Sequence record: OR062527
DNA from: Escherichia phage vB_EcoM_11B_SA_NWU
Length of the DNA stretch: 64,000 nucleotides
Strand: one strand, 5' to 3'
A program made the translations under genes and the position numbers. Below the pieces are notes generated by a model. That model ran no database searches, had not been told where the DNA came from, and saw only the letters and a program-made list of their open reading frames with translations. Below, in pieces: positions 4,165 to 6,493 of this stretch (position 1 is the first letter of the stretch; the number at the start of each line of letters is the position of its first letter).

Positions 4165-4330
4165 GTGTTTGTACGAAACGCCGGGATTCGAACCCGGTTA
4201 TCAAGCAATTGACGCTACTCAATATTTTTAAAAGGCCATATCTCGACCATATCCGAACGTTCCGTCAAAAACGCTACTCGGCTTACGGCAAAGATATTTC
4301 CTCGAATCGATAATTCGGTGCGCCGTTTCT
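4165..4330 (-). ncRNA. tRNA-like stable RNA(s), T4 species 1/2 RNA-like
   Basis: T-arm GGTTCGAATCC and acceptor-like 3' end but too long for one canonical tRNA; internal repeat GAGUAGCGU. Confidence 0.35.
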
Positions 4331-4432
4331 GCTGTGATATAAGGGGGCATTAACAAAACATAAAGATTTATTAATGCCAGTCCTTAAACAGGGAACATCA
4401 GTCCGACGACTTACCGGTAGCGACCCGGTTTC

Positions 4433-4783
4433 TTAATATTCTTTTAAAGCATCAATTTGTTCACGGCGTAAACGCCATAAATCAATTGCTTCATAAGCAG
4501 ATTCAACATTTCGAATTAGCCGACATTTATGTAAAGACTTATGATTTTGATATTGTGTAGATAACGGAATTTTATCTAAAAGGTCTTTACGTTCAAAGTA
4601 TTCGTAACCATCTAAGCCAAATGAACGATTTTTGAGAAATTGCCAATGACCAAATTCGTTTTCGACATAAACATAATCTGCATGCTGATAAAGCAAATTA
4701 ATTACACGTTCAGAAATAACAGTATCATTATGATTAAAATAGAATGTTAAATCATGAACTACTAAATAAACATTACCTTTCAT
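4433..4783 (-). CDS. hypothetical protein 116 aa inside tRNA region
   Basis: ORF with SD GAGGAAAA; starts right after tRNA-Arg 3' end. Confidence 0.5.
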   Translation of the reverse strand: MKGNVYLVVHDLTFYFNHNDTVISERVINLLYQHADYVYVENEFGHWQFLKNRSFGLDGYEYFERKDLLDKIPLSTQYQNHKSLHKCRLIRNVESAYEAIDLWRLRREQIDALKEY

Positions 4784-4801
4784 ATTTTCCTCACTTATAA
4801 T

Positions 4802-4877
4802 TGGTCGAGGCAGTAGGGATCGAACCTACGACCCAGGACTTAGAAGGTCCTTGCTCTTCCTTCTGAGCTATGCCCCG
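4802..4877 (-). tRNA. tRNA-Arg (anticodon UCU)
   Basis: manual fold: 7-bp acceptor, D and T arms, anticodon loop CUUCUAA, encoded CCA. Confidence 0.8.
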
Positions 4878-4880
4878 TAA

Positions 4881-5531
4881 TTAAAATTTCATTTTTCGAC
4901 CTTTAAACCATCCTTCTGGAATTGGGTCAGTTTTCTTAATACGTTTAGAAACTTTTTCATCTAATGAATGAATCCACATGGTTCCAAACTGAGAATTGTA
5001 TTTTCCAGAAGAATTAATCTTGGCTGAATCAGATATTTTCTTTTTCGTTTCTTTGTTATGTAGTTTACCTAAAAATCCAAAAGTTGGTTTTCTTATTCCA
5101 TTTTCCCATTGAATTTTCATAGATTCAGAAACTTTTTGCGATACCTTCGAATAGTCTCTTCTTAAGTTAGATTCTCTTACTCCAGATGAACAAATTGATG
5201 CAAAATTTGGACTATTACAAATATGATCCCAACCGCCTTCGCCACCAATCTTAAGATTATAAACGTTGCCTTTTAAAAATTCTTCTGTTACAATTTCAAG
5301 CTCTTTTGCGTACATTTCTTTAGCAGAAGAAAATTCATACAAAATTTCTTTTGTGAAATTATTTATTCCATACTTAGCAATTGCTCTTTTTATTCTTTTA
5401 CCAGAACCCATATAACCATCATTTATATTAGATGTTTTATGAGCTCCAACATAAACAGTTCCATTGATTAAATTAGTTATTTTATAAATCAGATAATGCA
5501 TATCTCCTCCATAGTTGAGATTATTATACAT
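4881..5531 (-). CDS. segB: GIY-YIG homing endonuclease (SegB-like)
   Basis: N-terminal HYLIYKITNLINGTVYVGAHK...DGYMGSG GIY-YIG module; embedded in tRNA cluster as in T4. Confidence 0.75.
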   Translation of the reverse strand: MYNNLNYGGDMHYLIYKITNLINGTVYVGAHKTSNINDGYMGSGKRIKRAIAKYGINNFTKEILYEFSSAKEMYAKELEIVTEEFLKGNVYNLKIGGEGGWDHICNSPNFASICSSGVRESNLRRDYSKVSQKVSESMKIQWENGIRKPTFGFLGKLHNKETKKKISDSAKINSSGKYNSQFGTMWIHSLDEKVSKRIKKTDPIPEGWFKGRKMKF

Positions 5532-5558
5532 TATTCCATTCCAATTGTAAACAAAAAA

Positions 5559-5631
5559 GGTGACCGATGGGAGTTGAACCCATGACTACGAGAATCACAA
5601 TCTCGAGTTCTACCAACTGAACTACGGCCAC
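5559..5631 (-). tRNA. tRNA-His (anticodon GUG), no encoded CCA
   Basis: manual fold: acceptor GUGGCCG/CGGUCAC, anticodon loop UUGUGAU, T-loop UUCAACU; non-canonical -1 position. Confidence 0.6.
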
Positions 5632-5745
5632 ATTAATACCTACTCCAACAATCAAGATGTCTTCACACGAAATTAAGAGAAGAGTGATCAGTTCAACCCC
5701 TATAATCGCGTCAAGTAGATATTAATGTGACAGTTGTCACAAATT

Positions 5746-5820
5746 TGGCGGACGTGATAGGATTCGAACCTATAACCAATCGCTTAACAGGCGATCGCTC
5801 TGCCATTGAGCTACACATCC
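5746..5820 (-). tRNA. tRNA-Asn (anticodon GUU)
   Basis: manual fold: acceptor GGAUGUG/CACGUCC, anticodon loop CUGUUAA, CCA encoded. Confidence 0.75.
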
Positions 5821-5824
5821 AAAT

Positions 5825-5911
5825 TGGTGGGGAGTGATGGAGTCGAACCACCCGAGTCGTAATGACAATGAATTTACAGTCCACACCGCTACCTCTACGG
5901 GATAACTCCCC
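5825..5911 (-). tRNA. tRNA-Tyr (anticodon GUA), long variable arm
   Basis: acceptor GGGGAGU/ACUCCCC, anticodon loop CUGUAAA, 87 nt type II. Confidence 0.7.
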
Positions 5912-5920
5912 AAATTAATT

Positions 5921-5995
5921 TGGTGGCCCTGGGTGGAATTGAACCACCATCTGGCGATTATGAGTCGCTTGCTTGAACCTTCCAGCTACAGGGCC
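5921..5995 (-). tRNA. tRNA-Met or Ile2 (anticodon CAU)
   Basis: acceptor GGCCCUG/CAGGGCC, anticodon loop CUCAUAA, CCA encoded. Confidence 0.7.
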
Positions 5996-5996
5996 T

Positions 5997-6072
5997 TGGT
6001 GCTGATTGACGGAATCGAACCGCCGACATCCTCATTACAAGTGAGGTGCTCTACCTACTGAGCTAAATCAGC
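5997..6072 (-). tRNA. tRNA-Thr (anticodon UGU)
   Basis: acceptor GCUGAUU/AAUCAGC, anticodon loop CUUGUAA. Confidence 0.8.
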
Positions 6073-6077
6073 AAAAC

Positions 6078-6167
6078 TGGCGGAGGCGATAGGATTCGAA
6101 CCTATGAGTCGCCGGAGCGACTGCCGGTTTTCAAGACCGGTGCATTCAACCACTCTGCCACGCCTCC
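6078..6167 (-). tRNA. tRNA-Ser (anticodon UGA), type II
   Basis: acceptor GGAGGCG/CGCCUCC, anticodon loop CUUGAAA, long variable arm. Confidence 0.8.
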
Positions 6168-6169
6168 AG

Positions 6170-6243
6170 TCTCCATACAAGGATTTGAACCTTGGACCTC
6201 CTGATCCCAAATCAGGCGCTCTACCAAACTGAGCTACACGGAG
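6170..6243 (-). tRNA. tRNA-Pro (anticodon UGG), no encoded CCA
   Basis: acceptor CUCCGUG/UAUGGAG, anticodon loop UUUGGGA; abuts tRNA-Ser. Confidence 0.75.
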
Positions 6244-6253
6244 TAAATTAAAT

Positions 6254-6327
6254 TGGAGCGGATAATGAGAATCGAACTCACATCATCAGATTGGAAGTCT
6301 GAGGTAATGCCATTATACGATATCCGC
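6254..6327 (-). tRNA. tRNA-Gly (anticodon UCC)
   Basis: acceptor GCGGAUA/UAUCCGC, anticodon loop CUUCCAA. Confidence 0.8.
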
Positions 6328-6332
6328 AAATT

Positions 6333-6419
6333 TGGTGCGAGAAGTGGGACTCGAACCCACAAGGAAATCATTCCGCAGCATTTTAAGTGCTGTGCCTTTA
6401 CCAATTTGACCATTCTCGC
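6333..6419 (-). tRNA. tRNA-Leu (anticodon UAA), type II
   Basis: acceptor GCGAGAA/UUCUCGC, anticodon loop CUUAAAA. Confidence 0.8.
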
Positions 6420-6420
6420 G

Positions 6421-6493
6421 CTGGGAATAAAGGATTCGAACCTTTGCATCCTGGAATCAAAATCCAGTGCCTTACCAACTTGGCTAATTCCCA
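6421..6493 (-). tRNA. tRNA-Gln (anticodon UUG), no encoded CCA
   Basis: acceptor UGGGAAU/AUUCCCA, anticodon loop UUUUGAU. Confidence 0.75.

Follow-up and report, generated by a model that had tools for sequence, protein, structure and literature searches.

The tRNA genes of phage T4 (NC_000866, 70.9–72.5 kb) form a cluster of eight together with the homing endonuclease gene segB and the genes for two stable RNAs, rnaD and rnaC (species 2 and species 1 RNA). This cluster is transcribed from a middle promoter located just upstream, transcription stops after the species I RNA, and no promoter maps near segB (PMC2330249); the roles of rnaC and rnaD are still unknown (PMC3014915). T4 SegB acts at a degenerate 27 bp site with the T-arm motif GGTTCRANTCC at its core, often cuts just after CCAR, and has as its preferred cleavage site the gene for tRNA-Asn in phages T2L, RB1 and RB3 (PMC2330249). 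In phage T6 the tRNA-Tyr counters Septu, which is overcome through SegB-dependent amplification of tRNA-Tyr (PMC13096335), and the tRNA-Tyr of T5 overcomes retron-Eco7 (PMC11555353). Here we describe the tRNA locus of Escherichia phage vB_EcoM_11B_SA_NWU (sequence record OR062527), using a stretch of 64,000 nucleotides (the window) to which all coordinates refer. The window very probably holds a T4-type tRNA operon of a Tequatrovirus carrying a SegB-family nuclease cassette, and between two of its tRNA genes lies a conserved, unannotated structured RNA of 95 nt.

The structural genes of the window are 98.6% identical to those of phage vB-Eco-KMB42, and the cluster region shows 96–97.5% DNA identity to FelixPlatter, vB_Eco_T-01, wV7 and many others; judged by these relationships, the source phage is a Tequatrovirus of the wV7/FelixPlatter type. 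Over the full window, ARAGORN predicts eleven tRNA genes, every one of them on the minus strand and within 4802–6493, and these are exactly the eleven, with the same anticodons, that had been listed in a first-pass annotation of this DNA. Ten of them score above the gathering score (29 bits) of the Rfam tRNA model RF00005, at 59–75 bits, and only tRNA-Tyr fails. From the upstream end the genes are tRNA-Gln (UUG; 6421–6493, or 6420–6493 in ARAGORN; 68.7 bits), tRNA-Leu (UAA; 6333–6419; 59.3 bits), tRNA-Gly (UCC; 6254–6327; 63.3 bits), tRNA-Pro (UGG; 6170–6243, or 6169–6243 in ARAGORN; 66.8 bits), tRNA-Ser (UGA; 6078–6167; 62.6 bits), tRNA-Thr (UGU; 5997–6072; 75.4 bits), a tRNA with anticodon CAU (5921–5995; 59.9 bits), the class II tRNA-Tyr (GUA; 5825–5911), tRNA-Asn (GUU; 5746–5820; 74.1 bits), tRNA-His (GUG; 5559–5631; 65.1 bits) and tRNA-Arg (UCU; 4802–4877; 63.9 bits). 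The first-pass annotation had also reported an embedded homing endonuclease, which is present as a GIY-YIG open reading frame (ORF) at 4881–5531, and had put the number of T4 tRNAs at eight, Tyr, Asn and His being absent there, which matches the T4 layout. Its statement that Gln, Pro and His lack an encoded CCA is borne out by direct reading of the gene ends: CCA is encoded in eight of the eleven genes (Leu, Gly, Ser and Thr among them), and the three exceptions are followed by CGC (Gln, as in T4), CTG (Pro, in both phages) and TTTTTT (His). The Leu and Pro genes are identical to those of T4 (84/84 and 74/74 positions), and tRNA-Arg is identical to that of phage a48.

The CAU tRNA, initially labeled Met/Ile, is most likely a tRNA-Ile2 reading AUA. 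It has C4:G69 and C5:G68 pairs, its anticodon stem-loop matches what we take to be the sequence of E. coli ileX, and the identical gene in FelixPlatter carries the annotation tRNA-Ile/ATA. The ATA codon is 3.3-fold enriched in the phage when codon counts from 62 long ORFs of the window are set against presumed E. coli frequencies, the comparison used for all codon ratios given here. Both the CAU tRNA and tRNA-Arg(UCU) match the corresponding T4 tRNAs at only about half of their positions, yet have identical counterparts in a48 or FelixPlatter; they are isoacceptor lineages other than those of T4, and represent isoacceptor replacement in an otherwise collinear operon.

Although tRNA-His had been singled out earlier as the least secure call, it scores 65 bits and is secure as a tRNA. 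Of the three genes for which a covariance-model check had been proposed, Asn (74 bits) and His are supported, and Tyr is the one that falls below the RF00005 threshold; its only match is to the tRNA-Sec model, at 30 bits and under the threshold of that model. Across phage homologues the tRNA-Tyr stems show G-U/G-C exchanges and double compensatory changes in the anticodon, T and variable stems: the anticodon stem is GUGGA/UUCAU versus GCAGA/UCUGU in homologues, the T-stem has G-U versus G-C, and the variable arm is compensated in a related locus (L010). The D-stem, CCG/CGG, is conserved but lies two positions off the register of E. coli tyrT, and this shift probably explains the failure in RF00005. 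The tRNA-Tyr call is upheld because its stems covary and because it matches the experimentally studied T6 tRNA-Tyr at 82 of 84 positions. The T6 homologue makes up for the cleavage of host tRNA-Tyr by Septu, and by analogy this tRNA may share that function. One base in the variable loop differs from T6 (A versus G), within the region reportedly cleaved by Septu.

The two ends of the operon also resemble those of T4. Upstream of tRNA-Gln is a candidate MotA-dependent middle promoter (6563–6589, minus strand), composed of TATGCTTTA at 6589–6581, a 12-nt spacer and TATTAT at 6568–6563. At the other end, the segment 4050–4440 can be aligned with T4 rnaD and rnaC at nearly every base, and it lies in the same place 3' of tRNA-Arg and ahead of the terminator. 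Alignment to the T4 genes places the rnaD homologue at 4317–4436 and the rnaC homologue, with its T-arm-like CCGGGTTCGAATCCCGG, at 4172–4310, both on the minus strand; the tRNA-like RNA with a T-arm proposed earlier at 4165–4330 therefore corresponds to rnaC, with rnaD not having been separated from it. Between tRNA-Arg and rnaD is an ORF of 116 amino acids (4433–4783, minus strand; phrog_3355, unknown function) that is annotated as hypothetical in relatives, and a strong predicted intrinsic terminator, a GC-rich stem of 10 bp with a run of T after it (4098–4121, minus strand), closes the operon. By homology to T4, the locus would be transcribed as one or a few polycistronic minus-strand RNAs, starting at the middle-type promoter and ending at the terminator beyond rnaC. 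Cleavage of these transcripts by host RNase P and 3'-processing enzymes would follow, and the host CCA-adding enzyme would complete the three tRNAs without CCA, so that the products would be the eleven tRNAs, rnaD, rnaC and probably the 95-nt structured RNA as a third.

The nuclease gene (4881–5501, minus strand) occupies the ORF at 4881–5531, with translation probably initiating at ATG 5501, preceded by a GGAGGAG ribosome-binding site, to give a product of 206 residues. The protein matches PHROG 314 'homing endonuclease' (E = 1.5e-43) and is homologous over its full length to T4 SegB (BLASTP, 51% identity, E = 9e-69); there is no meaningful sequence match in the PDB. The catalytic residues Y17 and G19 of SegB have been defined (PMC13096335), and Y6, Y17, G19, R39, E73/E74 and N82, along with the GIY and YVG motifs, are invariant between the two proteins. 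The last 32 residues are identical to those of T4 SegB, and loss of the C-terminal 32 residues detoxifies T6 SegB (PMC13096335). Seg homologues lie directly 3' of a tRNA in 25 of 54 IMG/VR loci, in agreement with the published association of seg genes with tRNA arrays (PMC13096335).

The closest DNA relatives of this seg gene lie outside E. coli phages, in Enterobacter phages of the genus Karamvirus, with 86% identity in the DNA and likewise 86% in the protein, where Y17 and G19 are conserved, and T4-type segB DNA aligns with it at only ~78% over ~60% of the gene. Sliding identity along pairwise alignments shows that the segment from 5640 to ~4990, which includes the first ~520 bp of the gene, is Karamvirus-like (84–98%). 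The last ~100 bp, from 4990 to 4881, are 90–100% identical to the T4/a48/SH-2 type, and for a48 and SH-2 the match continues at 100% into tRNA-Arg. We interpret the gene as a recombinant with a Karamvirus-type 5' part and a T4-type 3' end such as that in a48. A predicted promoter of the near-consensus sigma-70/T4-early type (TTTACA, 17 nt, TATAAT; 5523–5551, minus strand) precedes it, matching 11 of 12 consensus positions; it is the best site in the region and is conserved in the Karamvirus cassette. Transcription from this promoter would also cover tRNA-Arg, the 116-residue ORF, rnaD and rnaC, with no need for the operon promoter upstream. The exact seg protein is found on three public contigs, one of which has the same gene order CAU-Tyr-Asn-His-seg-Arg, and the full arrangement of eleven tRNAs plus seg is present in none of the 50,697 records of a phage collection.

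Comparison with alleles lacking seg shows the insertion point at base resolution. In these, tRNA-His, ending ...GGTTCGACTCCCATCGGTCACC-CCAA-TTA, reads GGTTCGACTCC...GGTCACC-CCAA-TTA and is followed by tRNA-Arg; this His-CCAA-TTA-Arg site is empty in FelixPlatter and in related loci L006 and L012. In the window the sequence continues after C73 of tRNA-His as ...GGTCACC-TTTTTTGTTTACA, and the cassette start, TTT(TTT)GTTTACA..., follows C73 directly both here and in Karamvirus. The insertion is thus exactly after C73 and replaces CCAA, which is why tRNA-His lacks CCA. The empty site fits the rules for T4 SegB, as both GGTTCGACTCC and CCAR are present and the CCAA is lost on insertion. Nine of the eleven tRNA genes and the rnaC homologue (at 4184–4194) contain the SegB core motif, with 11 matches in the window against 0.11 expected by chance, so that the phage's own cluster is full of potential sites, as in T4. 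One motif, GGTTCAAATCC, lies beyond the tRNA operon, at 30554–30564 on the minus strand in the structural gene region.

Presence or absence of the seg insertion is polymorphic among close relatives. By analogy with T4 SegB, the enzyme would cut seg-less alleles at the His/Arg junction, and the cassette, free-standing with its own promoter and ribosome-binding site and placed right after the discriminator base of tRNA-His, would then be copied in through recombinational repair along with flanking tRNA sequence. The window tRNA-His has a Karamvirus-type T-loop base, A, within an otherwise Tequatrovirus-type gene and leader, a pattern consistent with the flank having been co-converted along with the cassette. 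A role for this A (GGTTCAACTCC) in immunity to self-cleavage was considered and ruled out, as six Karamvirus-type loci without seg also have it; the base therefore marks lineage and not the presence of seg. A set of three-piece matches of ~3300 bp was likewise considered as possible relatives with a divergent seg gene and rejected, the extra length in vB_Eco_T-01 being elsewhere and its His and Arg genes adjacent.

The 114-nt spacer between tRNA-Asn and tRNA-His folds with a z-score of -4.36, and none of 200 shuffled sequences folds as well. Most of it is a structured RNA (5632–5726, minus strand), unannotated and identified by fold and covariation, in which three helices, P1, P2 and P3, meet at a three-way junction. 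A small hairpin, UGUGAC-AACU-GUCACA (5726–5741, minus strand), sits directly 3' of the tRNA-Asn CCA. The 14-bp closing helix of the 95-nt RNA ends at position -1 of tRNA-His and begins right after the upstream tRNA or the small hairpin; the RNA also has a variable arm and another of 4 bp that bears the conserved loop UCWUGAU. Its core is present in 355 phage records, including Tequatrovirus, Karamvirus and Klebsiella T4-like phages. The Salmonella phage STP4-a (Gelderlandvirus; locus L074, 401–530) retains the RNA, with only the first six bases of tRNA-His surviving after it, and has a GUGACA...UGUCAC hairpin with another loop, and in Escherichia phage W70 (Vequintavirinae; locus L075, 396–489) the element lies between tRNA-Gly and tRNA-Gln with a wholly different closing helix. 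No tRNA or other feature is annotated around the RNA in the STP4-a and W70 records.

The structure is strongly supported by covariation. RNAalifold on nine distinct sequences gives 27 pairs, ten of them with compensatory changes; 97.1% of alignment cells are paired versus 88.8% in shuffled alignments, and ten pairs covary versus 4.4 (0/500 shuffles reach either value). When the 3' partners are slid as a control, pairing does not exceed 50% and covarying pairs do not exceed three. That the structure belongs to an RNA from the tRNA strand is shown by a number of invariant G-U pairs and by weak scores on the reverse strand. A covariance model recovers three divergent copies outside its training set, and finds none in T4, T6 or 54 diverse seg loci. 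A permissive scan (E <= 1) gives no Rfam 15 match within 5632–5726, and a known ribozyme or RNA class was rejected on this ground and because junction strands of 3/5/1 do not suit a hammerhead core. A host origin was also discarded, given zero matches in 5,426 complete E. coli genomes. Ten additional IMG/VR loci with a degenerate core pattern are chance matches that have neither a covariance-model match nor a tRNA, and the literature searched contains no publication on a structured RNA in T4-like tRNA clusters.

The long closing helix, variable arm and small arm with a conserved 7-nt loop give the RNA a modeled shape that is tRNA-like. The loops of the variable arm and the small arm could pair with each other in either sequence type, but the register differs between the types, so that a tertiary contact between the P2 and P3 loops is no more than a conjecture. 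We propose, tentatively and as a somewhat doubtful suggestion, that the RNA represents an undescribed family of phage tRNA-array noncoding RNAs that is released by processing of the flanking tRNAs, a third stable RNA beside rnaC and rnaD. Because it persists in STP4-a, where tRNA-His is deleted, and in W70, it may act independently of tRNA-His; possible roles include a processing scaffold or a decoy in tRNA-centered phage-host conflict.

The gene downstream of this RNA is an unusual tRNA-His. The U reported earlier at its -1 position is seen as a T in the DNA, and T at -1 together with C73 is found in all 12 T4-like copies examined (the window and 11 related loci). A genome-encoded G-1 opposite C73, as expected of a bacterial-type tRNA-His, is therefore present in neither the window nor any of the 11 related loci; the G-1:C73 pair is the major identity element for the bacterial histidyl-tRNA synthetase (PMC9976931). 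Five unrelated phage tRNA-His genes from IMG/VR are divided, with three encoding G-1 and two having T at -1, and no publication on a phage tRNA-His without G-1 was found in the literature searched. This tRNA-His, with neither G-1 nor a codon justification, might share a module with the 95-nt RNA.

Codon usage sets tRNA-His apart as well. The codons read by the eight T4-type tRNAs are enriched in the phage from 1.6-fold (CAA) to 5.4-fold (AGA), and TAT and AAT are enriched 2.1-fold and 2.5-fold, against the presumed E. coli values; by the same measure His codons are depleted (CAT 0.8-fold, CAC 0.34-fold). Codon supply, put forward in the first-pass annotation for the cluster as a whole, explains ten tRNAs and not His. 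The ten would serve A/U-ending codons that are 1.6–5.4 times commoner in this 36% GC phage than in E. coli.

Several points weigh against the interpretation of the locus as a T4-type operon with a mobile SegB-family cassette. The case is built on sequence, such that expression, processing, aminoacylation and nuclease activity are predicted; the middle promoter is recognized by eye only; the E. coli codon frequencies are ones we presume to apply; the argument for co-conversion consists of one T-loop base only; and tRNA-His has no G-1 and stands outside codon compensation (CAT 0.8-fold, CAC 0.34-fold). The Pfam GIY-YIG matches of the seg protein are also below threshold, albeit at the right place (PF01541, 19.0 versus 22.6 bits; PF19835, SegE_GIY-YIG, 23.5 bits versus a cut-off of 25). 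These low scores, together with a chimeric structure in which the C-terminal DNA-binding end and the catalytic part come from different lineages, could mean that the ORF is an inactive or domesticated remnant that has lost its mobility. We regard this as very unlikely, as the reading frame is intact over its full length and shares the GIY/YVG motifs, R39, E73/E74 and N82 with T4 SegB, the cassette has its own strong predicted promoter and ribosome-binding site, the identical protein occurs on three independent public contigs, and the C-terminal 32 residues needed for toxicity of T6 SegB (PMC13096335) are intact and identical to those of T4.

The alternatives for the tRNAs turn on the three that T4 lacks. 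Tyr, Asn and His could be kept mainly as counter-defense spares against tRNA-cleaving immunity, with codon supply secondary and with seg enabling their amplification as T6 SegB does; this is plausible, and we hold it to be somewhat less probable than not. SegB-dependent amplification of tRNA-Tyr defeats Septu in T6 (PMC13096335), a tRNA-Tyr of T5 defeats retron-Eco7 (PMC11555353), and the window tRNA-Tyr matches that of T6 at 82 of 84 positions. The depletion of His codons means that codon supply cannot account for tRNA-His, and all three extra tRNAs have GUN anticodons (Tyr GUA, Asn GUU, His GUG). Such anticodons make up the queuosine family, on which colicin E5-type nucleases act. The chance of drawing three of the four GUN tRNAs from the twelve amino acids that T4 leaves uncovered is ~2%, computed post hoc. 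However, the enrichment of TAT (2.1-fold) and AAT (2.5-fold) shows that codon supply accounts for Tyr and Asn too, the literature searched reports no defense system that targets tRNA-His or tRNA-Asn when E. coli is infected by phages, and Asn, the 95-nt RNA and His stand between Tyr and seg, an arrangement not seen in T6. A further proposal is that tRNA-His is not a working histidine acceptor and is instead a hitch-hiker or decoy, kept as target or flank of seg or co-processed with the upstream structured RNA. The uniform T at -1 in the T4-like copies examined, the standing of G-1:C73 as the main bacterial His identity element (PMC9976931), the lack of His codon enrichment, the loss of CCA in alleles with seg, and the retention of the 95-nt RNA in STP4-a, where tRNA-His is deleted, all speak for it. 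We nevertheless consider it unlikely: the gene is near-invariant over at least three genera, reaches 65 bits as a tRNA and keeps both the GUG anticodon and C73, T at -1 is found in two of five unrelated phage tRNA-His genes and may be a tolerated phage habit, and the host CCA-adding enzyme could restore the CCA.

An RnlB ORF (40871–41875, minus strand), noted earlier in connection with RNA repair, matches Pfam RNA_ligase and T4_Rnl2_C and is RNA ligase 2. Its link to repair of anticodon-nuclease damage is weak, because the pair proven to carry out this repair in T4 is Pnk and RnlA, and RnlB is not part of it. Near-identical terminator hairpins (AGCCCCGACC[G/A]AAAGGTTGGGGCTTTTTGGTAT) at 3539–3562 and 4098–4121 (minus strand) flank an ORF of 159 amino acids at 3570–4049 (phrog_2280, unknown function), and the segment between the terminators is duplicated or expanded in some relatives.

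T4-like tRNA operons with SegB are textbook, and the eleven-tRNA set is not new, being already annotated in many Tequatrovirus genomes, so the overall interpretation of the locus adds little. The seg gene is a clean natural case in which a tRNA-targeting homing endonuclease has spread between genera and recombined, with base-precise junctions after C73 of tRNA-His and within the ORF, and is timely now that SegB is shown to drive amplification of anti-defense tRNAs. The 95-nt RNA is a strongly covarying and unannotated element within a locus that has been studied since the 1970s, and a conserved phage tRNA-His with neither G-1 nor codon demand offers a test case for non-translational or anti-defense roles of tRNAs.

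The closest clusters are those of FelixPlatter (MZ501065), wV7 and vB_Eco_T-01, in which the eleven tRNAs recur in identical order at 96–97.5% DNA identity and which share with the window the 95-nt spacer RNA, the 116-residue ORF and rnaD/rnaC. They differ in that tRNA-His ends in CCA with tRNA-Arg 4 nt later and no seg gene between them, and in having G in the tRNA-His T-loop where the window has A. T4 shares the neighborhood (trna.2/trna.3/ipI on one side, e.8 on the other) and the order Gln-Leu-Gly-Pro-Ser-Thr-CAU...seg-Arg-rnaD-rnaC, its Leu, Pro and Thr tRNAs are 100% identical to those of the window, and in both the seg stop codon abuts tRNA-Arg and a terminator follows rnaC. Relative to T4, the window has three extra tRNAs (Tyr, Asn, His), CAU and Arg tRNAs of other isoacceptor lineages, CCA encoded in the Ser and CAU tRNAs, and the extra ORF between Arg and rnaD; its seg protein reaches only 51% identity and its seg gene has a separate predicted promoter, and T4 lacks the 95-nt RNA.

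Phage T6 has the layout Gln-Leu-Gly-Thr-CAU-Tyr-segB-Arg, with segB directly after Tyr and neither Asn nor His, and a48 has eight tRNAs plus Tyr followed by segB-Arg. The homologous tRNA-Tyr (82/84), the SegB-family nuclease beside tRNA-Arg and the T4/T6-type C-terminal end are common to T6 and the window, whereas the window has Asn, the 95-nt RNA and His between Tyr and seg, and a nuclease that is mostly of the Karamvirus type. In Karamvirus itself (Enterobacter phage fGh-Ecl04 and relatives) seg is 86% identical in both DNA and protein, and the junction right after C73 of a near-identical tRNA-His, the cassette promoter and the upstream 95-nt RNA are all shared with the window. The Karamvirus seg is followed by tRNA-Ser and not Arg, differs in its C-terminal 30 residues, and is part of a much larger tRNA array.

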